A stretch of 64,000 nt of DNA from Blasia pusilla (GCA_050084515.1 CM114271.1:16616001-16680000), one strand, 5' to 3'. Positions 4,947-64,000 are shown, numbered from the stretch's first letter. A program made the numbers and translations. The notes: generated by a model not told the origin, from the sequence alone.

Positions 4947-5702
4947 TGTCGTGCACATACACATCATTACACAACATACATAGCTATCACTGAACACACA
5001 CACAAACACGCACGATCCCATGCTAACTCATGGCATCCAAACAACCAGACAAGAAGTACCAAAATATCTCCAATAAAGTAAGATCCAATCTCTCTCTACA
5101 CAATCTCACACCATAGCTCTCAAAGGTGTGCACTCTCTCTCATGTCAAACCAAACCCACTCTCCTAATGAGAGGCTTGGGTTACACTCACAAGGCAAGGG
5201 ACCATAGCTCCGCCGCCTCATGCCAAGAGGTTCAACAAAGAAAGAATGAGCTCTCAAGCTCTCTCTCCTTGGGATACATACCCCCTCCCCTCTCCCAAGC
5301 TCTCTCCATGGTAACCTATTCTCCCAAGTCATCTCTTTGGCTCTTGACCTGATGTAGGAGGTCAAGGATCACTTACCAAAAATAGAAAGTCGATCATATA
5401 CTCAAAATGGTACTTACCTAAAATAGTAAGTTCCTCAATATGGCTCCAAATGAACCAAAACGGGGGGGAGGGGGGGGCCTCAGCAGGTCATCCTCGACCT
5501 CCTAGGCCTGTCCTCCACTACTCTTGAAGACGCTCTACTAGATCTCACCGATCTATCCTAAAGGACGTGACAACTATGGTACGCATACACATCGCTACAC
5601 AACATACATCGCTATCACTGAACACACACACAAACACGCACGATCCCATGCTAACTCATGGCATCCAAACAACCAGACAAGAAGTACCAAAATATCTCCA
5701 AT
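4947..5702 (-). repeat. 3' terminal repeat block of copy 1: A (4947-5074), B (5075-5572), 2-bp spacer, A (5575-5702)
   Basis: 4947 starts TGTCGTGC and 5572 ends GACGTGACA. 5575-5702 repeats 4947-5074. Confidence 0.9.
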
Positions 5703-5712
5703 CGCCCCCCTA
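5703..5712 (-). promoter_or_regulatory. Polypurine tract of copy 1
   Basis: Minus strand reads TAGGGGGGCG directly before A. The same tract is at 20449-20458 (+) and 62974-62983 (-). Confidence 0.7.
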
Positions 5713-5888
5713 GCTCGTGGTTAGGTCCCTCTAACTCTAGATAGCCATCTATCCCTACCTACCATGACATACATCTCTCAGACGCTAAGAGCAAGAAGGT
5801 CGGGTGCTCATATGGCCCCATCGTTAGTTGCCTTCCTCTCATCCATGTCAGAGAAAAAGTCGGGATCGAAACCTACCTAGTATCTCCT

Positions 5889-6215
5889 CTATGTACATCT
5901 GGGACATATCCATCGTCCCCGAGGAATCCTAGTGAGAGGTGGCGTCAGACATGCCATATGCCAACCTCTCGAACAACCATCACATACTAGCATCGTGGCC
6001 GCACCACGGGCAGAACCACATAACATACGACGCAAGCCTGCAAGAACTACTGCTAAGCTCGGATCCACTATACTATCAATGTTAGGAAGGTGACATGGTG
6101 CATAATTACGCACATGGTCCTTCCATACCATACCATCGCGTCCCTCCAGCAAGAGAACACCGGATGGCAAAACGTCACGCACTCTCAGGATAGTGCGCCC
6201 TGCAGTCACATCCAA
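5889..6215 (-). pseudogene. Integrase C-terminal extension with PHD finger
   Basis: (C)MLC...CDGC...WHMAC...WICPRC matches the C4HC3 PHD pattern. The first Cys is Arg in this copy but intact in copies 2 and 3. Confidence 0.88.
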
Positions 6216-6230
6216 CGTTGTCAGTGCCGT

Positions 6231-7150
6231 CTACTGCAAGTAGACATAATCTCCCTGATGAGACCTCCGGATAGTTGGTCGATAACCACCACCCCGAATA
6301 GTCGCATACCTCAACGTATCCTGATGTTGCGCAATCGTCAAGTTCTCGAACGCCATGGGCATCACTCTCTGAAATAACTCAGCCCTCTGAGAACATGCTC
6401 GCACCCATACATCTGGGTCATCAAGGTCAAGCACCTCATCAGCATCTCGACGAATGGCCGTAGGTAAATCTGGCTCTTGGCCATAAAGTAGCAAGTACGG
6501 TGAAAAAGACGCTAAGGATGCCTGCCTGCTGAATCTGTATCCCATCGCCAACCATGGCAAGTGGAGGTCCCAATCTCCTAGGTGACCTCTCTGCAAGCCA
6601 TACTTGCGTAAACCCCTCTTCACCGTCAGCACAACTCTCTCCGCTAATCCATCTGCCTTGGGATGATCTCGCGAAGTCGTGCGGTGGTCGATCAGCGCTT
6701 GATCACACAAGGCTTGGAACTCACCCCGAAACTCGGTACCCTGGTCTGTCAACACCTCAGCCGGTGCGCCATAATGACTTAGCACTCTGTCAAGGAAGGC
6801 ATAAGCTACTCCCTCACTTGCTTTGTCAAGCAATGCAACCAACTCGATCCACTTCGACAAGTGCTCGACCATCACCAACACATAACGACTGTGACGCTCT
6901 GTCAAGGGCAAAGGTCCTGCAAAATCCAAACTCCATCTATACCCTAAGCCCATGATCAGTAATGGATGCAACTGTGGAGTCGGAGCATTGAACGATGCTC
7001 AGACCCAATCACACACCATGCACCTGGCAACAAACTACTGAACGTCAGTCTGCATGCCTCGCCACCAATACTGAATCTGGAGCAAGCTGTACGTCCGCTT
7101 CACCCCAAAGTGACCCAACTCCTCGTGGGCATGCTGCACTAGTCGTGCTC
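6231..7150 (-). pseudogene. DDE integrase (HHCC plus rve core)
   Basis: HEELGH...CMVC zinc finger, then WSLDF, TDQG and AERV catalytic motifs. Confidence 0.92.
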
Positions 7151-7519
7151 TCTGCGAAGAATGCGGCACTACGCGTACTCTGCCATCCTCCCAAACCGTC
7201 AAAACATGTGTCCCCTCCCAACGGAACCGTCTGGCCCGCTGTAGGATCCGATCTCGCTCTCTAGCACCCATTGTGCTTGCAACGCTGCCAATACGAAGGT
7301 ACTCCAAGACTTCTCCATCATAATGAATATCTCGGCCACCTGTCATCTCCTCACTGGCCTCGGGATCCAAGGACTCCCCATTAGACCTCGCCATCAAAGT
7401 TTCCACACTTTGGCTCTCCATAGCCAACATGCCTAAATAGGCTGACGCGTGCCATCCTGGCACCGACTCCTCATCACTGTCTCCATGCCATCTAGCTCCA
7501 GTCGCATCTCGCTGACTTG

Positions 7520-8900
7520 GGCATGGGTTACAACTCAACCCATCTGCATCTTGGTTGAGCATCCCAGGTCTATGTACAACCTGAAAATCATACTCCTGCA
7601 ACAAAAGAGCCCATCTCGCAAGTTTCCATATAAGCTTGTCGGACTCCATCAACCACTTCGAAGTGGTTGATGATCGGTGATGATGGTAAAGGGGTTGACG
7701 AATAAGTAACACCTGAAATGCACGACAACCCACACCGCAGCCAACCACTCACCCTCATACGAGCTGTACTTCGCCTCTACAGCGTTTTTCGAGTGGCTAG
7801 CGTAATCCACCACGAACTCTCTACCCTCATCATCATGTTGGGTGAGCACCGCTCCAAGCCGCAACATGCTCTAATCTGTGTGCAACTGGAAAGGACGCCC
7901 ATTGATCGGTCTCCTCAAGATGGGCGCAGACGTCAACCTGTACTTGAGCAACTGAAATGCTCGCTCCTGCTCATCCCCCCACTACCACTCGTGATCCAAA
8001 GGTCAGTGGCTTTGCAATCGAACAGAATCCCTTGACGTATCGCCAATAGAAGTTCGCCAATCCCATGAATGTGCGAACCCGGCTCACATCTGTAGGGCAT
8101 GGAATGCGTGAGATAGCCTCTACCTTTGTTTGTTGAACACCAAGGCCCCCTGGGTACATCGTATGACCCAACTACTCAATCTGGCTGTAGAAGAACTTGC
8201 ACTTGCCAGGATGTAGCTTCAGCCCATGTAATTGCAATCGTCGAAACACCTCCTCTAGATGTTGCTCATGCTCCTCAACCGTGGCGCTAAAGACTACGAT
8301 ATCATCAATATAACACCTAGCAGAATCCAGACCAGCCAAGATCCTATCCATCACCCTCTGAAACTCAGCCGGGGTGTTCTTTAACCCAAATGGTAAGAAC
8401 CGCCACTGGTACAAACAATCCTTCCCGTGAGGATCGATGCCCCAAAATTCCGTCTTCTGCCTGTCCTCCAATCTGATAGGCAACTGATGGTATCCGGCTC
8501 GCAAATCCAATGAACTGAAGACCTTTGCGTGTTCAATCGCATCAAAGATCTCCTCACGGGTGGGCATGGCATACATATCGGACTTCGCCTGCCGATTGAT
8601 AGGTCGGTAATCCCCACACATCTGCCTATCCGTCCAATTGCCATGCACATCCTTCTTGGCGGACATGACAGTGGCAGATGCATACTCCCCATGCGACATC
8701 TCCACTAATTCTGCTCTGACCAAGTCCTGGCTCCTACTCTGAATCAGAGCCCTCTCCATATCACTGTACCTGTAGGGTCGTCGGAAGATCGGCGTATCAC
8801 TCCACTACTCAATGCGGATCCCCGGTCCCTTCAGCATACCCAAATCCTCCATGCTAAACGCAAAGCAGCTCCTATAACTCCTGAGGAACTAATGTATTCG
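7520..8900 (-). pseudogene. Reverse transcriptase and RNase H (gypsy type)
   Basis: MCGDYRPIN, LDLRAGYHQ, LPFGLKN, YIDD; RNase H motifs LGAVLTQ and TDHQPL. Confidence 0.95.
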
Positions 8901-9279
8901 GCGCCCCCCTCCTCCTTTCAACTTAGGGCCCATATCTGGCTCCCAAGTCTCCATCGTGACTACGGTAGGACTCTCCGGCGCGGGTATCGATGGTTGCTAT
9001 GGTGCAACCCCGTCTCGAACAACAACACTCGGCCGCTCTCCTGCAGCCAACTGCAAACTCTGATCTCCTCCACGTGCCGTGCCCGAAACCACACTCGATG
9101 TTGTGGCTATCATCTCCTTGCGTACCTGGAAAACATCCCAAGAAGTCCAAGGGTGTCTCTCCCGATCTCCTCGGGTCTCGCCCCCAGCCACTGCCTCCAC
9201 CGTCTTGGTAGGCATGGGGCTCACCAACGCAACCGCTGTGATCTGTCGCGATCTCATACGACGCTGTTCAGCCACTTCC

Positions 9280-10226
9280 AAGGTGAGGATCCATGTCAAG
9301 CAGTTCAGGTCCATCGCCTGACCCAAGACATGGCGTCGTGATGCCTGTAACATTGATGGTACTGCCGTCACTCCTATGGGAAATACCATCACTCGCTCTC
9401 TCTCGTTGGCGTTGGGCTCCACTAACCGCTGAACCTGGTCATCCCAAACCAAGTCAGGAGCGGCCTCCTTGTATGCATAGGAAGCGGGAAAACTCACAAA
9501 CGTGGGCAAGGCTGCCCTCGGCCTGCCTACCCTGTTGACCACAATCAACGGTGGTCGATCATCGTGCCTCACTGCCTGTGATCGACGACCTGTATCCAAA
9601 ATGGAATCCACTAACAAATGGGAGGGGCGCTCCACTCTCGCATACGTCCTCCGTAACACCGCATGGGGCATCAAGTTGGTCCACCATAGACACGGGCGAT
9701 GGGCTCTAGAACCTACACTCGCCGCATCCAAGAACACTGCTGGGCCAATCCAGGCACACACCTGATGAGCACTCGTCACCACCCGTGACCGGGAGTCTCC
9801 TAAGATCGGCACATTCTCCAGAACGTAGGCTGGAGAATGAGATTGGTGCTCCTGCAACTTTCGTAAGACCCTCAAAATCTCCCAAAATAACTTGGACCGA
9901 GTGTCAGCCAACCCGTTGCCTTGTCCAGCACTCGATTGGCCCTGACATGGCCAACCGGAAATGACCAAATCAATGGTCCCTACCCGCTCTAAGTCCTACG
10001 CCCCCAACAACAAAATATCCCTCGGTAGGGAACTGTGATATCCTAGTACTGCGGACGCAGACAATAAGTCGGGAAAACGTAGGCGTAATTGTGCCACATA
10101 TCGTAGTGAGACGCGCCTCGCAACATCATCACTCTCCACATACAAGCACTGTTGTACTTGCACTCTTGCCTGCAAAATAGTAGCTAACCCGATGCTAATC
10201 CCTTTAAAGAGATCTAACACTCGAAT
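9280..10226 (-). pseudogene. DNMT3-like C5 cytosine methyltransferase domain within pol
   Basis: Motifs I (VLDLFKGIS), IV (GWPCQ), VI (LENV), VIII (AHRPCLWWTNL), IX (ERERVMVFP) and X (RRHVLGQAM) in order. One internal TAG at 9996-9998. Confidence 0.9.
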
Positions 10227-10645
10227 ACCCTCCTCCGGGGTACACCACACAATGGGTGTGGTATCCAAGGGTGTCATCGTAGCACTCCCTACTACCTCGG
10301 GTTCCTCAGACCCGTCACGCTCCGGTGCAAACGCCTCGCTCCACGTGGTCTGCACGTGCTCATCTGCCAATCTTCGAAGCTCCTCAGTCGAGCCCCACAT
10401 TGGCACCTCTCCTCCACGGAATGATGCACCTACCATAACACTCCTCTCCATAGAAATGTCAGGAATGGGAGTATCCTCTGCATGGACATGTCCTCAATCA
10501 AATCACTAGGCCAAGTGATGGCACTGCTAAATGCTGCTAAGGTCGCCATCTCTCCTGGCCGTTGCTCGATCACTACACCTATGAATCAAATGGGTAATGA
10601 GCTAAGGCGCCCATCACCTGACTGCCATCCTGGTCTGTAGGACGC

Positions 10646-11060
10646 TCACTCCTCCCAGTAATCCATGGAAAACCGCAACGGGTATAACACTCCTCCACCA
10701 ACCAAGACGTCGTAGGACTCTACATCTGTCACTATTGCCTTGGCGCGCACCACAGACTCATCAGTAGGATGTCCCGAGCGAATCCTCATCATGACCTCCT
10801 GTCGGGTGATATACTGTGTGGTACTCGCTCCACCCAAGGATGTCTGTATCCGGAATGGACAACGCTCCACATCGGCTCTTATTAAGCCCAATCCTCTGAA
10901 TGACGCTTTCCCCAACATCATGGGTTGCGCTCCTGAATCCAACAAGACGCGTTGCGGACTAAAATCTCTACCTCCACGACTCACCAATTGAAAGACCTCT
11001 CCTCGGTTATCCAGCAACACAACAGCAGGAGAAGCCATGGCACGCTCTATCGCGGGTCTA
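10646..11060 (-). pseudogene. Retropepsin aspartic protease
   Basis: VLLDSGAQ active-site motif and a downstream YDVLVG motif. Confidence 0.8.
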
Positions 11061-11849
11061 GCGAGCATCTCCGCCATTCTAGCAGCCACAGCCTCCCATG
11101 AATCCGACGTGGACGGTCCGAGCATCCGCTCCAAGGGCAGGTCCATCACCTCCTCTGCAATCACCTCTGAACGTGATGCAGGAACTCCAACTCTACGCTC
11201 ACATAGCGACGCGGCCAGCCGAAAAGCCTCGGCGGGTGTACACCCCAACGTCATAACATCGGAAGTAGAAAATAAAAGAGTGCGGTACACAACGGTGGCC
11301 GCCCCCAACAATGTGCTTGACACATGCCCCTCCTGAGAATCAACAATAGGAGTCGTCGCACTCGCTTCTCCCATCGCCCTCCGTGCCTGCACACCAACAA
11401 CATCACCAACTCTCAAGGAACTTTGATGAGGATCCATCGATGGGGTCCTCATCGCTTCGGACAACGTGAAAGACTGAGGAAGCCTAGTCTATTTTCTGCT
11501 TCCCCTTGTTGTGGATCCAACTCTGTGGCTGCTCCATGCGTCACAACTGTGGCGGCCTCCATCTGGGCAACCCCGCACATCCAACCAGGATCCTCCAGAT
11601 CTCTAGCCGCTCCATATGATGTCGATGCCACGGATCCGGCATCGGGTAATCTCAATGCCATAGCGGCAATCTGCTCCTGTAGTTGGTGTATCTGAGTAGC
11701 CATCCCAGCCTCACGTCCGGCGTCTCTCTCGGCGCGTCTAGGTGGTGGTACTCTACCTCCTCCACGGGCAGCTCCACCACCCTGTCAGGCAACTCGAGAT
11801 CCTTGACCCCCAACGGGACCACCTGGTGCACGATCTCTAGGCCCACCCG

Positions 11850-13080
11850 GACCGGCTACTCGCTCTGGTGCCCTCTCTGGCCCTCGGTCCGAACGTAATT
11901 CAGGATGTAAACTAAAATACCTGGCGCATGTATGACCATACCTCTGACAATAGTCACACTGATAACCTCCTTGTGCAGCACCATCTCCTCCTCCATGCTG
12001 AGGCATACGTCCATGACCATAACGAGTGCAATGGCTGATGATGGGCTCCGCCACATGACCAACAAGTAATAGTAGGCGGCTACTGTTGAGCTGCATATGA
12101 AGGCGCAGGTCTCTGTGCCACGGGCTCCCAATATCCTCCCTCAGCTCATGGTGCCACAATTGACCTATCTCGGAATTCACGTTGCTGCACAGGTGGTGGA
12201 GCCAATCGCAACTCCTCTCGCCCAGAACCCATGGTGGCTACGCTCTCCTCCGCCATGTTGCGCTCAATGTTCTCGGCGGTCCTAAAAACATCTCTCAACG
12301 TAGGGGAGGTGTTCATAAGAAGCACCCCCTCCCACACCCGTGGCCGCAAGGTCTGGTCCAGCATCGCGTACCATGACTGGATAGCCTGAGCCTCTGTCAC
12401 CCCCTGAGTGACATTGATCAACCCGCGCAAGCGAGTGTAAGCCTCACGTAAACTCTCACCCGGGTGCCTCTGGAAGTTGTGGATGCTCCGCAACTTTTCC
12501 GTCCGTACCCCTTGGTAGCTCACCCTCAACTCAGCAAAGAACTCAACCACGGGGTTGAACGTGGGACGAACCTGACTAGACGGTGCAACTGCTCCAGTGC
12601 GAGTGACCCCTCCTAAAACATCACTAGTGGAAGAGGAAGTAACCCCTCATGACTCCTCCTCCTCATCTGGGAACGGCTCCGTCCATAACACATAGTGTGG
12701 GTTGTAGTGGAGTCCTGGGCAAATCTGTGGGAAAACTCATGGTAATCGTCCATGGGTGCCCCCTCTAAATGCTGGAACAAACCGTTCCATGTTGTAAACA
12801 GGTTTAACTCTCTAGAGTTCTTGGCCTGCTGGGAGTCGCACCAACTCCTAAACTCTGCTATGAAATCGTGCAACTCAATCGTACCTACTGCACCTGAAAA
12901 CCTACGCGGTCCTCTACCCTAGTCGTCCATCTCGTACGCCCAACTGGTAGGACCACTCACAATGTGTGGCGATGTGCTCACAAATTCCTCTACACCCTCC
13001 CCCTCGTCTGACGATGACACAGAAGGAGGTCGAGGTGGTCCCTGAAGTGAAGACTCTCGGAAGCTCACGCCACTCCGCGT
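11850..13080 (-). pseudogene. Gag remnants with degenerate zinc knuckle
   Basis: FQRHPGESLREAYTRL gag-like segment and CDYCQRYGH knuckle, split over several frames. Confidence 0.7.
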
Positions 13081-14029
13081 AAAACCTCTAGAGCTACTCT
13101 CGGGTTCACCACCTGGCCTCTCAAAGTCCCAAACGGAGGCCGTGATGACCCTCGTGCCTTACTCACCCGATCACTCTTGCCTCGCGAGTAATCCCTCAAT
13201 CACTCATCCCCAACATGTGGCACTCGATCTACACTCTCCCCCCAAACCTTTTACGTGCGGCAATAAGCGGCGTGGTACGGCAAATCGACTAAGCTATCAT
13301 CTCATCGACAACCTACCCTCAACTCCGGACATCCCACACAGGTCTATGTCCCCTAAATCACATACATAAATGATGCTCTCAGCATCCACACACCCAATAT
13401 CCCCAAATAAACTACCCAAATCCCAGAATCCCTCACACGTGCAGGGTAAAGGACCAAATGGGTAACCTGAACACATGTCAATGTCGCTCCTCAGCAACTG
13501 CGAATCTCAACCCCAACTCGGTCGTGGAGACAACTCCTCCAATCAGCAAGTCATACACCTCCCGTACTAACGTTGCTCAAAACTCCTCGGTAGATGGTGC
13601 AGTTCCAGCGGAACGGTGCAGCGTTGCAGGCAGCACGGAACGGCACGGCCCTCAATGATGGGATGCGGCACTCGGCGGCATACCCTCCTCAATCAACAAT
13701 AAACCCACACTCTCCTCCACAATGCCGGAGCGGCTCCGCGATCAAGACGGTGTGGTGCGGTCACGAGCGGCACGGCGCGGCAATCGGCGGCGCGTTGCAG
13801 CTACGGGCGTCACGGCACGGTACTCGATCGTCGTTCAGCGGCTACCAATCACAACATAGCAGCAGGAAATCAAAATTCAAACACTATAACATGAGGTCAT
13901 ATGCATCACATGTTGATGACGGTGGCGGCCAAAACAAAGTACGTGATGGCGATGAAAGTCCGAGAATCAACGAACGTTGTGGAAAACCCTCCACTCCGTA
14001 ACGGCGGCAATGGCAACCAAGGGTGGACA

Positions 14030-14210
14030 ATGGACGGTGGACCATTAACGGTGACGGTTGACCGTTGATGGTGACGGATGAACGGTGACGGTGACGGACG
14101 AACGGTGACGGTGATGATTGACCGTCGTTGGTGACGGTTGACCATTGACGGTGACGGTTGACCATTGACGGTGAAAGTTGACGGTTGACAGTGACTATGA
14201 CAGCGACGGC
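14030..14210. repeat. GACGGT/GACGGTTGACC short tandem repeats in the element leader
   Basis: Repeated gacggtgacggttgacc units seen directly. Confidence 0.8.
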
Positions 14211-14814
14211 CGTCGCCGATGTGGCGGCTGGTTTAGGGTTTACATAATTTAACCCTAAAAATCGCCTAGCAATGGCAGTTTTGCAAGATTGACCATAACT
14301 TTTTGCTCGCAACTCCAAATTGCAAAATATTTATTGCACAGCGTGCACAACTTTACGATCTATGCCAGCATCAAAAAATATTTGGAATAAAAAATTCCAG
14401 TAAAAATTGACAAGGACTATCGTAAAGCCCAATGTCTCTTTCTTCTACCCAACTTTCGGCAGCGCTTCCGCGCTGATTCCTCCCAACAAAAATGTAAAAC
14501 CTGTAAAAATGCAAATCACCAAGCTACATGGTGCTCCCAAAAGCACCGGCATGGGGCAACCCGCCCCCATACTCAATCCCTATCAGAAATTGGGCATCGC
14601 TTCCGCGTGCCACTCTTCCACACGAAAAATCGGCAAATGCAAAGAACAATCCAAGCAACCCTTGCTCCGATGAGCACTCCCATGAGCCGTTGAACGGGGA
14701 ACACGTTCCCCAACCTGCAAAAACAGCGAGTGACCAACGAGCTCCCCCATGAAGCTCTCTCACTCTCTCATTCTCGCATTCTCTCTTTCTCTCATTCTCT
14801 CATTCTCTCTTTGT

Positions 14815-15131
14815 AAAGTAAGATCCAATCTCTCTCTACATAATCTCACACCATAGCTCTCAAATGTGTGCACTCTCTCTCATGTCAAACCAAACCCACT
14901 CTCCTAATGAGAGGCTTGGGTTATACTCACAAGGCAAGGGACCATAGCTCCGCCGCCTCATGCCAAGAGGTTCAACAAAGAGAGAATGAACTCTCAAGCT
15001 CTCTCTCCTTGGGATATTTACCCCTCCCCTCTCCCAAGCTCTCTCCATGGTAACCTATTCTCCCAAGTCACCTCTTTGGCTCTTGACCTGATATAGGAGA
15101 TCAAGGGCTACTTACCAAAAATAGAAAGTCG
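14815..15131 (-). repeat. Truncated 5' B repeat of copy 1
   Basis: Matches 5075-~5391. Not followed by A on the internal side. Confidence 0.9.
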
Positions 15132-18100
15132 CTAGGATGGCGGAGATGCCCGCTAGACCCGCGATAGAGCGTGTCATGGCTTCTCCTGGTGTTGTGTTGC
15201 TGGATAATCAGGGAGAGGTCTTCCAATTGGTGAGTCCCGGAGGTAGAGCTTTTAGTGCGCAATGCATCTTGTTGGATTCAGGAGCGCAACCCTCGATGTT
15301 GGTGAAAGCCTCATTCAAAGGATTGGGCTTGACAAGAGCCGATGTGCAGCGTTTTCCATTTCGGATATAGACATCCTTCGGTGGAGCGAGTACCACACAA
15401 TATATCATCCGACAGGAGGTCGTGTTGAGGATTCGCCCGAGACATCCTACAAATGAGTCCGTGGTGCAAGCCAAGGCAATAGTGATTGATGCAGAGTCCT
15501 ATGACGTCTTGGTTGATGGAGTAGTGTTATATCCAGTAGGGTTTTTCCTGGATTACCGGGAGGAGTCAGCATCCTATAGACCAAGATGGCTCTCTGGTGA
15601 TGGGTGCCTTAGCTTATTACCCATTCAATTCACAGGTGCACTGATCGAGCAACGGCCAGGAGAGATGGTGACCTCAGCATTATTTAGCAATGCCATCACT
15701 TGGCATAGTTATTTGATTGAGGAACATGTCCATTCAGAGGATACTCCCATTCCTGACATTTCTATGGAGAGGAGTGTCATGGTAGCCGCATCGATCTGTG
15801 GAGGAGAGGTGCCGCTTTGGGGTTCGACTGAGGAGATTCGACGCTTAGCCATTGAGCATCTACAGACCGCGTGGAGTGAGACGTTTGCACGAGAGTGTGA
15901 CAGGTCTAAGGAACCCCAGGTAGCCAAGACTGCTGCTATGACCCCTTTGGATATCACCCCGATTGTGTGGTGCATCCCAAAGAAGGGTATTTGGGTGTTG
16001 GATCTCTTTGGAGGGATCAGTATTGGATTAGTTGCTATTTTGTAGGCTGGAGTGTGCATGCACGAATACCTGTAGGTGGAGATTGATGATGTTGCAAGGC
16101 GCGCTTCACTTCACCATACCATGTGGCACAGTTACGCCTCCATTTTCCCAACTTGTTGTCTGCGTCCGCCATTCAGGGTTACTAGAGTTCCCTACCAAGG
16201 GACATTTCATTGTTGGGGGCGCATGACTTGGAGCGGGTAGGGACCATAGATTTGGTCATTTCTAGTTGGTCGTGTCAGGGCCAATCGCGTGGTGGACGAG
16301 GTAGCGGGTTAGCTTATACTTAGTCCATGTTATTTCGGGAGATGATGGGATTTTGCGACACTTGCAAAAGCATCACTCCCATTCTCCAGCATACATTCTA
16401 GAGAATGTGCCGATCTTGGACGATTCGAGGTCACGGGTGGTGACGAGTGCACATCAGGTGCGTGCATGGATGGGCTCATCAGGGTTTTTGGATGTGGCAA
16501 GTGTAGGTTCAAGAGCACACCGCCCGCGTCTTTGGTGAACCAATTTGGTCCCACATGAGGTTTTACGGAGGGCGTATGCTAGCGTGGAGCGCCCCTCCAA
16601 TTTTTTGGTGGATTCTATTTTGGATCCAGGTTGTCAATCAGAGGCAGTGAGGCACGATGATCAACCGCCGTTGACTGTGGTCAATAGGATTGGCATGCCA
16701 CGGGCAGCCTTTCCCATATTTTTGAGTTTTCTTGCTTCATATGCATTTCAAGAGGCCGGACCTGGCTTGGTTTGGGATGACCAGGTATAGAGGTTGGTGG
16801 AGCCCAACACCGATGAAAGAGAGCAAGAAATGGGATTCCCCATAGGAGTGATGGCAGTACCGTCACTATTAGAGGTATCACGACGTCATGTCTTGGGATA
16901 GGAGATGGACCTGAACTGCTTCATATGGATTTTCAGCTAAGGCATAGCTGAGCAGCGTCATTTGAGGATGCGACATATCACAAATGTTGCATTGGTGAGC
17001 CCCATGTCTACCGAGATGGTTGAGGCAATGGCTAGGGGCAAGATGTGAGGAGATCGACACGCCAAGGGTGATTGGGAGAGACACCCTTGGACTTCTTGGG
17101 ATGTTTTGCAAGTACGCCAGGAGATGATAGCCACAGCATCGAGCGTGGTTCCGGGTAATGCACGTGGAGATGAGAATCTGTTGTCTGAGATGGGGTTGCA
17201 CCATAGCAACCACTAACACCTGCGCTGGAGAGTCCTACCGTAGTCACAATGGAGACTTGGGAGCTAGATATGGGCCCTAAGTTGACAGGAGGAAAGCGGC
17301 GCCGGATACACCAGTTCCTTAGGAGTTATAGGAGTTCCTTTACATTTAGTATGCATGATTTGGGTACGCTCAAGGGTCCAAGGATCTGCATTGAGTTATC
17401 GAGTGACACACCGATCTTTCGACGACCCTACAACTACATTGACATGGAGAGGGCTCTAATTCAGAGTAGGAGCCAAGACTTAGTTGGAACAGGACTAGTG
17501 GAGATGTCGCCTGGAGAGTATGCATCTGCCCTTTGTCATGCCCGCCAAGAAGGATGTGCATGGCAACTGGAGGCATAGGCAGATGTGTGGAGATTACCGA
17601 CCTATCAATTGGCAGACAAAGTTCAATAGGTATGCCATGTCCACCCCTGAGGAGATCTTTGATACGATTGGGCATGCAAAGGTCTTCAGGTCATTAGATT
17701 TGCGAGCCGGATTCCATTAACTGCCTATCAAATTGGAGGACAGGCAGAAGACGGCATTTTAGGGCATCGATCCTCACAAGAAGGATTGTTTGTACAAGCG
17801 GCGGTTCTTACCATTTGCTTTAAAGAACGCCCCGGTTGAGTTTCAGAGGGTCATGGATAGGATCTTGGCAGGTCTGGATTTTGCTAGGTGTTATATTGAT
17901 GACATCGTAGTCTTTAACGCCACAGTTGAGGAGCATGAGTGATATCTAGAGGAGATGTTTCGACGATTGCAATTACATGGGCTGAAGCTACATCCAGCAA
18001 GTGCAAGTTCTTGTACGACCAGATTGAGTAGTTGGGTCATACAATATACCCAAGGGGCCTTGGTGTGCAGCAAATGAAGGTAGAGGCTATTTCACGCATT

Positions 18101-20586
18101 CCACGCCCTACAGATGTGAGTCGAGTTCGTGCATTCATGGGATTGGCGAACTTCTATCAACGATACGTCAAGGGTTTTAGTTTGATTACAAAGCCGCTAA
18201 CCTTGCTGACCAAGATGGATCAAGAGTGGCACTGGGGGGATGAGCAGGAGAGAGCATTTCAGCTGCTCAAGGATATATTGACATCCGCGCCCATTTTGAG
18301 GAGACTGATCAGGGGGCGCCCTTTTGAGTTGCATACCAATTGGAGCATGTTGGGGCTTGGAGCCGTGCTCACCCAGCATGACGATGATGGTAGAGAGTTT
18401 GTGGTGGCTTATGCTAGTCGCTCGAACAACGCTGCAGAGGCAAAGTATAGCTTGTATGAGGGTGAGTACTTGGCTGCAGTGTGGGCTCTTGCACATTTTA
18501 GATGTTATCTATTCGGAAATCCCTTTACCATCATTACTGATCATCATCCACTTAAGTGGTTGATGGAGTCCGACAAGCTTATAGAGAAGCTTGCGAGGTG
18601 GGCTCTTTTGTTGCAAGAGTATGACTTTGAGGTGGTGCATAGACTTGGGACGCTCAACCAAGATGCAGATGGTTTGTGCCGTAACCCATGCTAGAGTCAT
18701 CGAGATGCGATTGGAGCTTGTTGGCATGGTGAGAGCGATGAGGAGTTGGTGCGAGGATGGCACGCGTCAACCTATTTGGGCTTGTTGGCTTTGGGGAGCC
18801 AGATTGTTGAGACTTTGATGGCGAGGTCTGATGGAGAGTCCTTAGATCCAGAGGCAGGTGAGGAGACGACAAGTGGCCGAGACATTCACAACGATGGACT
18901 AGTCTTGGAGTATATGCGTACTGGCAGCGTCACGAGCACAATGGGTGCTAGAGAGCGCGATCGGAGCGCGAGTTTGGGAGGATGGTAGAGTGCGAGTGGT
19001 GCCTCATCCTTCGTAGAGAGCACATTTGGTGCGTCATGCCCACGAGGAGTTGGGTCATTTTGAAGTGAAGCTGACGTACAGCTTGCTCTAGATTCAATAT
19101 TGGTAGCGAGGCACGCAGACTAACGTTCAGCAATTTGTTGCCAGATGCATGGTGTGTGATCAATTCTGAGCATCGTTCAATGCTCCGACTCCACAATTGC
19201 ATCCACTTCCAATCATGGGTTTAGGTTATAGATGGAGTTTGGATTTGCAGGACCGTTGCCTTTGACGGAGCGCCATAGTCGTTATGTGTTGGTGATGGTC
19301 GAGTACTTCTCGAAGTGAAAAGAGTTGGTTGCATTGTCTGACAAAGCAAGTGAGGGAGTAGCATATGCCTTCCTAGATCAAGTGTTGAGTCATTATGGCG
19401 CACCAGCTGAGGTCTTGACAGACCACGGTATAGAGTTTCGCGGGGAGTTTCAGGCCTTGTGTGATCAGGCGTTGATCGACCACCGTACCACTTTGCGAGA
19501 TCATCTTGAGGCGGATGGACTAGCGGAGAGGGTTGTGCAGATGGTGAACAGAAGATTACGCAAGTATGGCTTGCAGAGAGGTCACCTAGGAGATTGGGAC
19601 CTTCAGTTGCCGTGGTTGGCAGTGGGATACAGATTCAGCAGGCAAGCATCCTTAGCGTCTTTCTCATCGTACTTGCTTTTGTATGGCCGAGAGCCAGATT
19701 TACTTACGGCCATTCGTCGAGATGTTGGTGAGGTGTTGAACCTTGATGACCCTTATGTATGGATGTGAACATGTTCTCAAAGGGCTGAGTTATTTCGGAG
19801 AGTGATGCCCATGGCGTTTGAGAACTTGGAGATTGTGCAACATCAGGATACGTTGAGGTATGCGACTATTCGAGGAGGTGGTTATTGACCTACTATCCGG
19901 AGGTTTCATCAGGGAGACTACGTCTACTTATAGCAGACGGCACCCACGACGTTGGATGTGACTGTAGGGCGCACCATCTTGAGAATGCGTGAGATTTTGC
20001 CATCCGGTGTTCTCTTATTGGAGGGACGTGATGGTATGGTTTGGAAGAACCATGTGCGTAACTGTGCGCCATATCATCTTCCGAACATTGACGATACAGT
20101 TGATCCAAGCTTAGGAGTAGTTCGTGCAGGCTTGAGATGTATGTTGTGTGGTTCCGCTCGTGGTGCAGCCACTATGCTAGTCTGTGATGGGTGTTCGAGA
20201 GGATGGCATATGGCATGTCTGACGCCACCTCTCACTAGGGTTCCTGAGGGACGATGAATGGGCCCCATATGTACATAGCGTTGGTAGTTCTACATTTCGA
20301 CTTGTGTCTATGACATGGATGACAAGAAGGCGAATAACGATGGGGCCACATGAGCATACGGCCTTTTTGCTCTTAGTGTCTGAGAGATGTATGTCATGGT
20401 AGGTAGGGATAGATGGCTATCTGGAGTTAGAGGGACCTAACCACCAGCTAGGGGGGCGATTGGAGATATTTTGATACTTCCTGTCTCGTTGTTTGGATGT
20501 CATGAGTTAGCATGGGATCGTGCATGTTTATGTGTGTGTTCGGTGACAACGATGTATGTTGTGTAGCGATGTGTATGCGCACGACA
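15132..20586 (+). mobile_element. Copy 2 of the DNMT/PHD gypsy element, 5'-truncated just upstream of the protease, ending in PPT plus A only
   Basis: Inverted homolog of ~5575-11082. DNMT ~15985-16940 (PC mutated to SC), RT/RH ~17430-18694, INT ~19020-19950, PHD ~20135-20277, A 20460-20586 ending GACA. Confidence 0.93.
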
Positions 20587-22233
20587 AGAGAAAAGAGAGA
20601 ACGAGGAAAAAAGAGGAACAGTGTCACCTACGAAGAAGGCTGGAGAAGAGCTATGTGCGTTATTCACTAAAGACTCCCGAGCCTCAACAAACAATCGAGA
20701 AAAACCCCAATCAAAAAATTGTTGGCATTTAGCTCGAAGGGCACTGGAAAGCATCACCTACAAAGAGAGAAGGAGAAGGAACCATGCAACGCAAATCAGC
20801 AATCAGCAACGTCGTGCCACGAATCACCAAAGCTTTGACGTCAAAACGCGATTCCTCGCCACCCGCAATACCAACAAACAAAGCGAAGGCCGCAACGACC
20901 GAGGCCCTTGTAGAAACCAAGAATCCGTCCCCACAAATTCAATCGGTGACGAAAACTTCATGCTAATCCGATCGATGGCCCGAACGACCATGTTTGCGCA
21001 AAGTGTTTGCATCCATCCATCCACTGTCGGTCGCTTCCGTCCATCTGGCCGATTCCGTCCATCCCTTACCTTCCGCCCTATTCCTTCCATCCTATTCGCT
21101 TCGTCCAACCGTCACCGCTCTGTCCATCCATTCTACTTCGTCCATCCTTCCCACTCTGTTCACCTAAACTCTCACACCTTCTGCATCTTAAGCGGGCCCT
21201 GATCCTGAACCTTGGGCGTGCAAACAGCCGAGCCACTTGCGGCTAGTCTACAGCCTAATGAATGAGTTTCCTAGGCTATCTATGGCCTTTGGTCCCTAGG
21301 GTGCATGGGATGGCCATGAAATTTGTTGTTATAATAAATTATTTAAAAGAAAACTGAAAGGTATTTTCACTCACCGGTTTGGCTGGGACGGTCACTACGT
21401 GACGACCTGACGCCACCCCTATCCGTCCGAATCTCCAGCTGGCTAGAGGTAATCTCCAGCCCAGTTTAGAGGCCCATTTTGGAGGTCCTCCCACCCGGTC
21501 CAGAGGAAGTTTACGGCACGCACGCGGAGGGTCGATGATGCGGCGAGTCGCAAGTCCGGAGTCCGGCGAGTCCCTCGAGCCAGAACCAGAAAGAAACGAA
21601 AGAGCCAGGGGACGGACTCCGGGTAATATTCTGATGGGACCAAAGAATGTTCTGTGTGGCCAATGTTGGGCGTTTCATGCCATCTGTGCATGTATGACGC
21701 ATACGAATCTAGGTTTCTCATTTCTTCTGCCGCTCACGGGCTCCCATTGCTTCTCAGCAGGTCCCACTCCGGTCATTTTGCAACAGCTCTTCCGGTTATT
21801 TACCGGACGAGTTCTTCGCTTCCAGATATTTTCCTGCTCCAAGGAAAGCTTGCCATGGTTTGATAACCTCCGGCTCTCCTATCACACGATAGGAGAGCCG
21901 GAGTCAAGTTCTTCATTTCAGGTCACTTGCCGGCCTTTTCCTCCCATTGTCTATTTAATCCCTTGCAGATTTAAGGAACAGTATCCGTTTTTCCCCCTCA
22001 TCACACTTTTGATCCAGTTTTTCTTGCAATAGCGGGTGAGATGGTCGATTGTTACCATGCCATGCCATGCCATGAGGATCATGGTCCCAGTCTGAAATAG
22101 GAGATCTAAAGACGAATCCCATTACAAACACGAACACAAGACACGGAGAAGAGGACGGGAGAGAGAGTGAGGGAGGAAGGGAAGCAGGGAGGAGACATAC
22201 AGAGAGTGGACCTGAGGAGAAGAGGGCGACGAG

Positions 22234-58820: not shown

Positions 58821-58888
<68 letters not shown>

Positions 58889-59301
58889 ACCCTTTATCCT
58901 AATAAGAGGCTTGGATTACTTATAAGGCAAGAAGAATCATAACTCTACTACCTTATGAAAGGGTCTTCAACAAAGAGAGAATGAGCTCTCAAGCTTACTC
59001 TCACTAACTATACTTCTTCACTCTCCCCTAACTTTCTTCTTGGTTAATTTGTGCACATGGGCCATCTCTTAGATTCTTAGCCTATAGTGGTGGATCAAGG
59101 GTCACTTTCCCTAACTGAAAAGTCAACTTTTCTCATAAAAGAAACTTATCCGAAATAGTAAACTTCTCTATAATCTGTAATTGATCCCAAACTAGGGGAA
59201 AACAAACTTTCTCAAGTTATCTTGGACCTCTTAAAGTTGATCTTTGACCTCCTTGAAGGTATCCTGCCCATACTTGTCGATATACTCCTAAAGACTTGAC
59301 A
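58677..59301 (-). mobile_element. Old diverged solo A-B unit of the DNMT-gypsy family, with expanded (CT)n at 58824-58887
   Basis: Colinear with 4947-5572 (accaaaatgtctccaat, cctaataagaggcttgg, ttcaacaaagagagaatgagctctcaagct) and ends GACTTGACA. Confidence 0.7.
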
Positions 59302-59741: not shown

Positions 59742-61885
59742 CTAGTACTATGGTGCCCGTGCGTTGCACTAGGCTCAAAAGATTGTGTTTACATCAAACA
59801 TACATATGTTGAATCAATGTTAAGGATGAATTTACACTTAATATATTGTGTCAAAATTCATATTTAATTTCAAAATTTAATGACATTGAACAACTTGACA
59901 ACAATTCATTCAAAAATTCCTTTATAAACAACATTGCGTATAAACACATCTTCACAATTCGATTGAATGTCATTTCCAGCCATAATATGTATCAAACTCC
60001 TTGTACCTACTCTAGATAAGGCCACATACAATGGCCATGAGAAAACACATTTGTGGGCAAGTATATGCCCACCTTTCGAAATGTTTGACCTTGAAATTTG
60101 TTAAAAGTCATGGCAAAAGATGGTTGTATTGGGAATTGAAATCTTTGTTAATCAAATGGAAGGCCCGAGTCAAAAGAAACCAATGGAATCCGAGGAATAA
60201 AAATTTGATCTCCAATATGGCTCCCTATCACGATTTCAGCATCTATAATAGTTTGAGAAAATCCTCAAATTACCAACCTGGTACCATTTTCTTGTCCTTT
60301 AGCACCATTAATGTTTCTGAGTAACATGATGGGAGCACCAATTTTCAAGGTTAGACGAAGCGGCGGCAAACCAGATGGAAGACACGTGTTCAAAAACTTT
60401 GTAGGATAGATGTGACTCATTCCATTATCTGATATTGAGTCATAACTCAAGTATGTATGTTCCTGTAGACGCACGCAAGCACATAAACATTAGGTTGATA
60501 CAATATTTTTAGTACAACATGTAGTTGCATTGTTTCTGTTACACAAACTAAAAAAATTACCACTTTCTTACCTCTTCTTAGCATGGCGACATCACTTCAG
60601 AATTGATTTCATCCACATCCGTGTTTCTTGGAGTCAATACAGCAGTGTCTCGTAGAAAGTGAACATCTTTAAATTTGTCGATATCATTTCCATATACTAC
60701 TGCAATAAGGTCACTTTTTTTCTTCTCTTTACATACCATATCCAACGGTACTTCAATGATGTCTTATCCTAAGTTACGATGAACCTGCTCACGACCTTCT
60801 CCCACTTGAAATAACCAATTCGTATTTCTTGTTGATGGAGACCTATCTCCCCAATTAAATTTTAAACTCTCATGTTTGTTGTAAGTTTCATCAACCTCAC
60901 ATGAGACCAAAATGATGATCTCTTGATAGTTGCACGTAGAATTTATGGTCGATCACCATGGAAAACTACAAGGACTTGCCAAAAATCTCCATAATTTTTT
61001 TTAATTTTCCACCAAATGGCAGCTCTCTAAGTTTTTCACATACATGTCATGCGCATACACATTGCTACACAACATACATCGCTGTCATCGAACACACACA
61101 CCAACACGCACGATCCCATGCTAACTCATGGCATCCAAACAATGAGACAAGAAGTACTAAAATATCTCCAATTAAAGTAAGATCCAATCTCTCTCTACAC
61201 CATCTCACACCATAGCTCTCAAAGGTGTGCACTCTCTCTCATGTCAAACCAAACCCACTCTCCTAATGAGAGGCTTGGATTACACTCACAAGGCAAGGGA
61301 CCATAGCTCCGCCGCCTCATGCCAAGAGGTTCAACAAAGAGAGAATGAACTCTCAAGCTCTCTCTCCTTGAGGTATACCCCTCCCCTCTCCCAAGCTCTC
61401 TCAATGGTAATCTATTCTCCCAAGTCACCTCCTTGGCTCTTGACCTGATGTAGGAGGTCAAGGGCCACTTACCAAAAATAGAAAGTTGATCATATACTCG
61501 AGATGGTACTCACCTAAAATAGTAAGTTCCTCAATATGGCTCCAAATCAGCCGAAACGAAGGGGAAACCTGCTCTCTCAGGTTTCCCGAGGCCTCAACAG
61601 GTCATCCTCGACCTATTGAGCATGTCATCCACTACTCACGAAGGCGCTCTACTAGATCTCATCGATCTATCCTAAAAGACGTGACATACGACTCCCAGAA
61701 TATCTTGAAGAGTTCGATTGACACCCTCAAATGCATGGCAATGAGCCATAGGTGCCTCATCCCATTTAATAATGATTGCATTTTGAATGACACGTGCCTC
61801 TTCACTATTAATAGATATCCTATACGTGGAGGTTTCATTCAACGTAATAGGAATTTTATAACTTGAATATGTTGTACGTCCACCT
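59742..61885 (-). mobile_element. Helitron 3' remnant (Pif1-like helicase fragments), interrupted
   Basis: LPSGLPP...LKIGAPIMLLRNI...NGTRL and ELPFGGK. 3' end has a GTGCAACGCAC hairpin and CTAG|T at 59742. Confidence 0.85.
61045..61686 (-). mobile_element. Solo A-B unit (TGTC...GACA) with 4-bp TSD
   Basis: Near-identical to 4947-5572, flanked by TACA/TACG. Removing it restores Helitron helicase coding sequence. Confidence 0.9.
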
Positions 61886-62206
61886 TGTCGTGCGCATACA
61901 CATCGCTACACAACATACATCGTTGTCACCCAAGATACACACAAACACGCACGATCCCATGCCAACTCATAGCACCCAAACACAAAGGCGAGAAGTACCA
62001 TAATATCTCCAATAAAATAAGGTCAAATCTCTCTCACAACACCATAGCTCTCATATGTGTGCACTCTCACATGTCAAACCAAACTCACTCTCCTAATGAG
62101 AGGCTTGGGTTACACTCACAAGGCAAGGGACCATAGCTCCGCAGCCTTGTGGGAGGAGGGCTACGTTTAAGGTATCGTGTGCATACACATCGCTACACAA
62201 CGTACA
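61886..62206 (-). repeat. Partial terminal-repeat fragments (A plus part of B; then a short A start at 62173)
   Basis: Homology to A and B, starting TGTCGTGC at 61886. Confidence 0.8.
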
Positions 62207-64000
62207 TGTCGTGCGCATACACATCGCTATACAATATACATCGCTGTCACCGAACACACACAAAAACACGCACCATCCCATGCTAACTCATGGCATCCAT
62301 ACACAAAGGCGAGAAGTACCAAAATATCTCCAATAAAATAAGATCTAATCTCTCTCACAACACCATAGTTCTCACATGTGTGCACTCTCACATGTCTCTC
62401 TCAATGTCAAACCAAACCCACTCTCCTAATGAGAGGCTTGGGTTACACACACAAGCCAAGCAAGACCATAACTCCGCCGCCTCATGCCAAGAGGTTCAAC
62501 AAAGAGAGAATGGGCTCTCAAGCTCTCTCCTTGAGATATACTCCTCCCCTCTCCCAAGCTCTCTCCATGGTAACCTATTCTCCCAAGTCACCTCCTTGGC
62601 TCTTGACCTAATGTAGGAGGTCAAAGGACACTTACCAAAAATATAAAGTTGATTGTATACTCAAAATGGTACTTATCTAAAATAGTAAGTTTCTCAATAT
62701 GGCTCCAAATGAGCCGAAACGAAAAGGAAACCTGCTCTCTCAAGTTTCCCGGGACCTCAGCAGGTTATCCTACTGACTCTGTCCTCTGCTACTCACGAAG
62801 GCACTCTACTAGGTCTCACCAATCTATCATAAGAGACGTGATAGTTGTCGTGCGTATACACATCGCTACACAACATACATCGTTGTCACTGAACACACAC
62901 ACAAACATGCACGATCCCATGCTAACTCATGGCATCCATACACAAATGCGAGAAGTATCAAAATATCTCCAATCGCCCTCCTAGCTGGTGGTTAGGTCCC
63001 TCTAACTTTAGATAGCCATCTATCCCTACCTACCACGACGTACATCTCTAGGACACTAAGAGCAGAAAGTCCGGGTGCTCATGTGGCCCCATCGTTAGTC
63101 GCCTTCCTGTCATCCATGTCACAGAAAGATTCGGAATCGAAACCTACTTAGTATCTCCTCTATGTACATCTATATGCCAACCTCTCGAACATCCATCACA
63201 GACTAGCATCGTGGCCGCACCACGGGCAGAACCACACAACATACAACGCAAGCCTGCAAGAACTATTGCTAAGCTCGGATCTACTGTACCATCAATGTTA
63301 GGAAGGTGACATGATGCACAATTACGCACATGGTCCTTCCATACCATACCATACCATATCATCGCGTCCCTCCAGCAAGAGAACACCGCATAGCAAAACG
63401 TCACGCACTCTCAGGATAGTGCACCATGCAGTCACATCCAACGTCGTCGGTGCCGTTTTCTGCAAGTAGACATAATCTCCCTGATGAAACCTCCGGAGAG
63501 TTGGTCGATAACCACCACCCCGAATAGTAGCATACCTCAATGTATCTCGATGATGCGCAATCGCCAAGTTCTCGAATACCATGGCCATCACTCTCCAAAA
63601 GAACTCAGCCCTTTGAGAACATGCTTGCATCCATACATCTGGGTCATCAAGATCCAGGACCTCACCAGCATCTCGACGAATGGCCGCATGTAAATCTAGC
63701 TCTCGGCCATAAAGTAGCAAGTACGGTGAAAAAGATGCTAAGGATGCTTGCCTGCTGAATCTGTATCCCATCGCCAACCAGGGCAACTGGAGGTCCCAAT
63801 CTCCTAGGTGACCTCTCTGCAAGCCAAACTTGCGTAAACTCCTCTTCACCGTCTACACAACTCTCTCTGCTAATCCATCCGCCTCGGGATAATCTCGCGA
63901 AGTTGTGCGGTGGTCGATCAGCGCCTGATCACACAAGGCCTGGAACTCACCGCGAAACTCGGTACCTTAGTCTGTCAACACCTCAGCTGGTGCGCCGTAA
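62207..64000 (-). mobile_element. Copy 3 of the PHD gypsy element (3' part; runs off the window)
   Basis: A-B (62207-62843), GT spacer, A (62846-62973), PPT, PHD with internal deletion, integrase core. Confidence 0.92.

Follow-up and report, generated by a model that had tools for sequence, protein, structure and literature searches.

According to textbooks, an integrated long terminal repeat (LTR) retrotransposon has the same ends as its reverse transcript. A different arrangement has been indicated for KnitGypsy-Dnmt3 of Klebsormidium nitens, to which the legend of Fig. 4c in de Mendoza et al. (2018, PMC5890265) ascribes a DIRS repeat structure with Gypsy domains; the main text of that paper gives no target duplications, end sequences, primer-binding site (PBS), polypurine tract (PPT) or mechanism for the element. 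The expression 'streptophytes (Gypsy-DNMT3)' is used in a 2026 preprint (10.64898/2026.05.21.726589). In the literature that we searched, no second paper using the name KnitGypsy-Dnmt3 was found, a Marchantia-centered search returned nothing on a permuted layout, and matches for split direct repeats combined with integrase and gypsy concerned, by their titles and the opening parts of their abstracts, tyrosine-recombinase elements or general topics. Here, we analyzed a window of 64,000 nt from Blasia pusilla (GCA_050084515.1 CM114271.1:16616001-16680000), in which the copies of one repeated element were delimited by self-comparison and by reading of their junctions. An earlier note on this DNA had pointed out a gypsy element with permuted terminal repeats and knew of no described gypsy family with such a layout, a statement that the 2018 legend overturns. 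We propose, with confidence a little better than even, that the element is a Ty3/Gypsy-type LTR retrotransposon of the streptophyte Gypsy-DNMT3 group whose copies are circular permutations of the reverse transcript, opened by integrase at an internal palindrome after its ends have been joined.

Copy 1 of the window occupies positions 4947-15131 on the minus strand. In coding direction it reads as a truncated repeat B, the internal region, the PPT, repeat A, two bases (NN), a second B and a second A, that is, B-internal-PPT-A-NN-B-A; on the plus strand, the same order appears as A', B', two bases, A', the reverse complement of the polypurine tract, an internal region of about 9.1 kb and a partial B'. 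B1, the 5' copy of B, is truncated to its last 318 nt (14814-15131), which include a TATA-like box and a primer-complement site (about 14976-14989). This piece is 95.6% identical to 5074-5392, the PBS-side portion of B, and no A adjoins it. Toward the 3' end, the PPT (AGGGGGGCG) with a conserved block upstream (5703-5736), almost identical to the tract of the related family described below, immediately precedes A1, the internal copy of A (5575-5702). The two bases at 5573-5574, the center of an attachment (att)-like joint, separate the end of A1 from B2, a complete repeat (5075-5572) that starts with TGTCAC at 5572 in coding direction. B2 is followed by A2, the terminal copy of A (4947-5074), and the element ends in GACA at 4947. 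Among the A copies in the window, A1 is the closest to A2 (94.5% identity), and self-comparison of 5575-5702 with 4947-5074 gave 97.5% over 119 nt. The joint of copy 1 is mutated, its A1 no longer ending in GACA as judged against copy 3 and eight metagenome loci. The 3' part of copy 3 (62207-64000, minus strand) is composed of A2 (62207-62334), B2 (62335-62843), two bases, A1 (62846-62973), the PPT and internal region up to the edge of the window; its plus-strand order, A'-B'-NN-A'-PPT, is the same 3' end as that of copy 1. Self-comparison and junction reading thereby bore out the order that the earlier note had given for copy 1, B1 being truncated, and the shared 3' end of copy 3. The note had also placed the host junctions at TGTC/GACA in the middle of the LTR; such unit starts and ends were present at 4947, 20586, 61045 and 61686, but at 62207 the junction is obscured by further sequence outside it, namely a partial B-A unit and 34 nt that duplicate the A end.

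We then turned to relatives of the element in metagenomes. Through similarity of the element's DNA methyltransferase (DNMT), 78 loci were collected (32-71% DNMT identity) and set in coding direction. Thirty-four of these were compared with themselves, and from one locus, L055, four parts (the 339-nt B, the 114-nt A and the two ends of the internal region) were compared with all 78, of which 37 matched. The DNMT of this related family is 55-64% identical to that of the window. The 5' end was visible in 20 loci, representing 17 distinct flanks, and in every one of them host DNA was followed by TGTCATG, the remainder of B and the internal region; A stood ahead of B in 0 of the 17. The 3' end was visible in 13 loci (11 distinct flanks) and, apart from the rearranged L060, occurred in two forms: a long form, PPT-A-NN-B-A, in seven distinct loci (L011, L046, L052/L054, L055, L053 and L061, and L004, which is cut inside B2), and a short form in which PPT-A passes directly into host DNA (L013, L020, L028, L030 and L044). 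Six of the seven distinct loci with two ends carried perfect 4-bp duplications just outside the start of B and the end of A (AAGG, CATA, AATC, TCTC, CACA and TGTG), and in L028 three of the four bases agreed. In the window, the only unit testable for a duplication is a lone B-A unit (61045-61686, minus strand, TGTC...GACA), whose flanks, TACA and TACG, match at three of four bases. Recurrence of the layout in seven distinct related loci, with six of seven perfect 4-bp duplications, confirmed that it is not a product of chance. These data also agree with the earlier prediction for full elements, namely B at the start, A at the end and duplications of 4 bp, while complete LTRs at both ends, the arrangement that was to speak against it, were not found in these loci.

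The long and short forms are related by a direct observation. L030, with a single A (13369-13482), and L053, with A-NN-B-A (7605-8171), are the same chromosomal locus in two samples, with flanks that are 95% identical; in at least one case, therefore, the short form goes back to the loss of NN-B-A from between its two copies of A. Copy 2 of the window (15131-20586, plus strand), an inverted and 5'-truncated copy of the short form internal-PPT-A in which A (20459-20586) is followed by unrelated DNA, may have originated from the same kind of loss.

Two signals for reverse transcription could be placed beside the repeats. A PPT (CTAGGGGGGCG) lay directly ahead of A1 in 11 of the 12 loci read, and approximately the same 34 nt, consisting of the tract and the block upstream of it, are found in the window, although the families diverge elsewhere. 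At the opposite side of the internal region, its first 14 nt in copy 1 (14800-14813, minus strand) adjoin the end of B1 and constitute a predicted self-priming PBS, being the perfect complement of the site in B1. Specifically, the first 14 nt after the end of B1 in the window, and the first 16 nt in L055, perfectly complement a site 176 nt upstream in B; in L061 the complement comprises 10 nt and lies at 171 nt. The primer motif differs between the two families, yet the pairing and the distance are kept. An alignment of 23 copies of B placed the complement site about 30 nt after TATAAAG, with pairing of 16/17; a TATA box at about this distance ahead of the site is present in both families. Moreover, positions 1842-2036 of L055 have a predicted fold (-57.8 kcal/mol, z = -2.9) in which the site after B is paired with the first 17 nt, and 2 of 200 shuffled sequences folded equally well. 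Since the PPT adjoins A and the predicted self-priming site adjoins B, the repeat made by reverse transcription is marked as A-NN-B; the LTR that had been defined in the earlier note as A+B, from PPT to PBS, stands with the two bases included. On this reading, the last 176 nt of B would correspond to R-U5, A-NN and the first part of B would correspond to U3, and B would contain the promoter and a putative transcription start. The predicted architecture is that of self-priming elements.

The joint between A1 and B2 is, in its ancestral form, a palindrome. In the metagenome loci, the end of A1, the two bases and the start of B2 read ...CGACA-NN-TGTCATG..., and the core of the joint (GCACGACA / TGTCAYG) is common to both families. 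The two central bases in eight loci were GC (four), AT (three) and TC (one), and those in the window, in coding direction, are AC in copy 3 and GT in copy 1. Because all of these variants except TC are one or two transitions away from GC, the ancestral joint was GACA-GC-TGTC, a 10-bp palindrome; in L055 the palindrome measures 16 bp. In shape, GACA-GC-TGTC resembles the junction of two LTRs in a circle. The B2|A2 joint is an exact abutment of the right and left ends of the reverse transcript, and B|A was exact in six of eight metagenome loci and in three of four window copies. The exceptions are the lone unit of the window, which has one extra A (61172/61173), L046, which has 18-19 extra bases (10838-10857) resembling a piece of the B end, and L060, which is rearranged. 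The extra bases in the lone unit and in L046 are of the type that is found at circle junctions, although they may also stem from later mutation.

The series of events that we propose would start from an otherwise ordinary reverse transcription. Plus-strand priming at the PPT would set the start of A, and minus-strand priming after B by the RNA's own 5' end, in the manner of Tf1, would set the end of B; with the promoter (TATA box) and the transcription start inside B, reverse transcription would then generate A-GC-B at both ends. The two ends of this transcript would be joined head to tail, giving the precise B|A joint, for which a circular intermediate would be the simplest route. Integrase would act on GACA-GC-TGTC instead of on the ends of the reverse transcript. 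Cuts following CA on both strands would produce recessed CA-3'OH ends and 5' overhangs of two bases, as integrase requires. The molecule would be opened in this way at the palindrome within the PBS-side repeat, and its insertion with a stagger of 4 bp would give B-internal-PPT-A-GC-B-A. The same product could be reached in another order, in which the palindrome is cut in linear DNA, the new ends are inserted and the old ends are afterwards joined by the cell. Once integrated, recombination between the two copies of A would yield the short form, B-internal-A, and recombination between the two copies of B would yield lone B-A units. The joining of the ends (as a two-LTR circle or after the cut), the cleavage of the palindrome by integrase and the start of transcription are the steps that we infer from the observed layout. 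Routes by way of linear A-GC-B...A-GC-B only (deep 3' processing at the inner half-sites, an early cut on the plus-strand strong-stop duplex, or flap retention) were also considered and rejected as sources of the full form; on paper they produced only B-internal-A and never B|A.

Several observations weigh against this proposal. Its main weakness is that a symmetric two-LTR circle would contain two identical palindromes and should give rise to two isomers, of which only one is seen: the alternative, B-A-NN-B-internal-A, was present at 0 of the 17 distinct 5' ends. We found no mechanism that would yield the observed isomer only. As a test of repeats being made anew at each insertion, we compared the pairing of A1 with A2 and of B1 with B2 within elements. 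In the metagenome family, neither repeat resembled its partner in the element more than it resembled copies in different elements: for A the identity was 91-96% between A1 and A2 and at most 93-96% between elements, and for B it was 88-95% between B1 and B2 and 89-94% between elements. Only in the window did A1 and A2 pair most closely within their own element, at 94.5% in copy 1 and 92.2% in copy 3, where other pairings of A reached no more than 90.6%; B was uninformative there. No exact primer complement of at least 8 nt was found in the decayed copies L046 and L054, and in L052, likewise decayed, only a 9-nt match in another position was found. In addition, a complete 5' end is displayed only by the related metagenome family, copy 1 of the window being truncated at 15131, and in the window a start with B is seen in the lone B-A unit. 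The absence of the alternative isomer keeps alive a rival explanation, unlikely in our judgment and still to be taken seriously, in which reverse transcription itself yields the permuted DNA, as has been proposed for Ngaro and PAT. The RNA would run from inside B1 to inside A2, the internal A-GC-B would serve as template for both ends, and a linear or single-stranded B-internal-A-GC-B-A with TGTC/GACA ends would be inserted normally, with no circle. Directional copying would account for the single isomer, and the precision of the B|A joint in metagenome loci and window copies is as expected of a templated joint; the topology of the repeats is also that of tyrosine-recombinase elements (A-coding-B-A-B in the legend for SymbioDIRS). 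However, such a route leaves without a function the conserved PPT ahead of A1 and the primer complement behind B1, which are placed where ordinary priming would make A-GC-B. At the junctions read in metagenome loci, neither a purine-rich stretch ahead of B2 nor a primer complement after A1 was found, and we could not derive, by reasoning, a series of strand transfers from both priming sites that puts B-A at the right end.

The same topology raises the question of whether the element belongs to the DIRS/Ngaro/PAT-like order, for which split direct repeats are typical, or is mobilized by a member of it, a recombinase gene having been missed. The enzymes encoded by the element make this very improbable. 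A Pfam scan of 30 open reading frames (ORFs) of copy 1 on both strands gave domain matches on the minus strand only and no match to the tyrosine recombinase domain (Phage_integrase), and PF00589 was absent from all 20 homologous proteins. The integrase (6231-7748, minus strand), which the earlier note had described as HHCC-DDE, has the HHCC zinc domain (H2C2, 7035-7748, PF17921) and the DD35E core (6231-6998, PF00665) of Ty3/Gypsy elements, and the D, D-35-E spacing read off the translation is intact. Furthermore, TG...CA ends together with perfect 4-bp duplications at six of seven loci are the signature of a DDE integrase. Tyrosine-recombinase elements are not known to produce target duplications of this kind. 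A further rival, that A-B-A arose by chance nested insertion, local rearrangement or an assembly artefact from an ordinary element with a B-A LTR, could draw on the state of the window, where the copies are old and broken, copy 1 lies head to head with copy 2 at 15131 and extra partial units lie beside copy 3. An origin of this kind is next to inconceivable in view of the same order and joints in window copies 1 and 3 and in seven distinct loci of metagenomes from several samples, in which target duplications enclose the unit as a whole, and B-A followed by the primer site was found in 0 of 17. As far as sequence allows, the layout and duplications of the metagenome loci refute it.

Apart from the integrase, the coding capacity of copy 1 is also that of a Ty3/Gypsy element. 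The gene order is gag, protease, C5 DNA methyltransferase, reverse transcriptase, RNase H, HHCC/DD35E integrase and PHD finger, so that the order protease, reverse transcriptase, RNase H and integrase is kept, with the methyltransferase inserted ahead of the reverse transcriptase and the protease recognized by its DSG motif only. All of the following lie on the minus strand. A putative gag (11785-12918) with broken frames, a CCHC-like knuckle and no Pfam match has translations resembling the N-terminal part of P0004, and the probable protease region (10646-11488), also without a Pfam match, was assigned from the DSG motif and an alignment by eye with P0004 and P0009. The C5 cytosine DNA methyltransferase (8997-10493, with the Pfam match, PF00145, at 8997-9995) lies in pol between the protease and the reverse transcriptase (8172-8804, PF00078, E 1e-27), which is followed by RNase H (7649-7870, PF17917, E 1e-19) and the integrase. 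The C-terminus of pol carries a PHD finger (5889-6230, PF00628, E 5e-12) in place of a chromodomain, for which no Pfam match was found there. Between gag and the primer site of copy 1 there was no ORF with a Pfam match, and the long 5' untranslated leader (about 1.9 kb) contains a 20-bp tandem repeat in eight copies (14033-14195). With regard to the remaining hallmarks of Ty3/Gypsy elements, the PBS, here a predicted self-priming site, lies beside the 5' repeat and the PPT beside the 3' repeat, and the related loci have TG...CA ends and a target duplication of 4 bp, within the usual 4-6 bp; instead of two complete, identical terminal LTRs, the integrated copy has B-internal-A-NN-B-A. The methyltransferase ORF has 20 longer homologues, with 34-69% identity over 30-96% of the query, that are mostly annotated in Marchantia, Calypogeia and Sphagnum; these bryophyte homologues are 47-65% identical to it, and for liverwort and moss proteins a range of 55-65% was also obtained.

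Several irregular arrangements were noted in the window and in the metagenome loci. Copies 1 (minus) and 2 (plus) are joined head to head at 15131, where only the last 318 nt of B1 are left in copy 1 and copy 2 sets in at the point equivalent to 11083 of copy 1, in the protease region. Beyond copy 2 (20567-22032) there are two open frames of about 210 codons each, with no Pfam match. Outside copy 3, on the minus strand, lies a partial B-A unit with a duplicate of the A end (61886-62206), made up of B-A (61886-62147), 26 nt (62148-62173) and the 34-nt A-end duplicate (62174-62206). The partial B-A carries the diagnostic deletion and substitutions of copy 3, and a third A in copy 3 is conceivable given this unit of the copy 3 lineage. 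A stretch of 115 nt at 58888-59002, with 77% identity to part of B, is probably the remnant of a related repeat. Among the metagenome loci, L017 (5973-6218), and likewise L027, has an inverted PPT-A fragment in place of B1, after which come some 13 nt from the end of B and then the primer site; this arrangement looks like an aberrant product or a rearrangement. At the rearranged 3' end of L060 (12308-13204), B is present first as an inverted piece and then as its last 153 nt; 10 nt of the primer site, another 7 nt and A come after these, and a perfect CACA duplication surrounds the whole. L078, a distant relative (38% DNMT identity), is decayed beyond reading of its repeat layout.

The integrated ends thus differ from the ends of the reverse transcript, and they do so consistently, in the two diverged families analyzed here and, by the wording of the 2018 legend, in a charophyte. 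If integrase works on the internal palindrome of joined LTRs, two-LTR junction forms would serve this lineage as productive intermediates, contrary to the usual view of them as dead ends, and LTR finders that expect two equal terminal repeats would mis-delimit such elements. It would also connect the biochemistry of retroviral integrases, namely palindrome cleavage, with the split-repeat logic of tyrosine-recombinase elements. A broader reading, which we consider quite possible and hold only tentatively, is that integration in the whole Gypsy-DNMT3 lineage, charophytes through bryophytes, takes place by site-specific cleavage at a palindromic att within the reverse-transcribed LTR and not by way of the transcript's ends, with the joined-ends (two-LTR) form as its obligatory precursor. 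In that case, the circle-junction model of retroviral integration, long abandoned, would have a natural example in this lineage, and the DIRS/Ngaro strategy would have a DDE counterpart. Since relatives are annotated in the laboratory model Marchantia polymorpha, the question is directly testable.

A biochemical parallel to the proposed cleavage is retroviral. The integrases of foamy virus (PFV; PMC1180852) and of HIV-1 (PMC1905944) cleave a palindromic LTR-LTR junction in vitro. Like the joint described here, the retroviral junction is a palindrome of the type ...CA-NN..-TG... formed by two element ends, and a DDE integrase cuts it to processed ends (PMC1180852, PMC1905944). In retroviruses, however, the junction exists only in circles, between two whole LTRs, and the provirus is unpermuted, whereas in the window element and its relatives the repeat permanently contains the palindrome and all integrated copies are permuted; the bases between CA and TG number two here and four in retroviruses. 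In the circle junctions of the bacterial insertion sequences (IS) IS3/IS911 and IS30, the ends abut at a distance of 2-3 bp and form the substrate of a DDE enzyme, and insertion results in a short duplication. The resemblance to these elements is one of logic only, as they are DNA transposons without reverse transcription. With regard to priming, minus-strand synthesis in Tf1 is primed by the 5' end of the RNA itself. The window element would resemble the Tf1/Sushi group and the Tcn1 clade in that its predicted PBS would be complementary to the start of its own RNA, as placed by our putative transcription start, and not to a tRNA. Those elements have ordinary LTRs and chromodomains, while the window element has a PHD finger and permuted repeats. 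According to Neumann et al. (2019, PMC6317226), self-priming is a described feature of the Tf1/Sushi group and a predicted one of the Tcn1 clade in plants.

In the arrangement of its repeats, the element is like Ngaro, PAT and DIRS-like elements, with which it shares split direct repeats of the type X1-internal-Y1-X2-Y2 and an internal joint that is a copy of the joint of the element's two ends. The window element and its relatives differ from these in having a DDE integrase, TG...CA ends and 4-bp duplications, where tyrosine-recombinase elements have their recombinase, which was not found here, and are not known to duplicate the target on insertion. KnitGypsy-Dnmt3 shares with the window element a Gypsy pol with a Dnmt3-type C5 methyltransferase and, according to the wording of the legend on the K. 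nitens side, a DIRS-like repeat arrangement (PMC5890265). The relatives of the window element are bryophyte proteins, the K. nitens element having been compared by description only. The kind of element is therefore already in print, in a figure legend of 2018 where it is left unexplained, and the window element is a new member of it, of bryophyte type. What is new, as far as the literature searched extends, is the duplication of 4 bp, the internal site with its palindrome, the predicted site for self-priming, the restriction to one isomer and the way in which the short form is derived.

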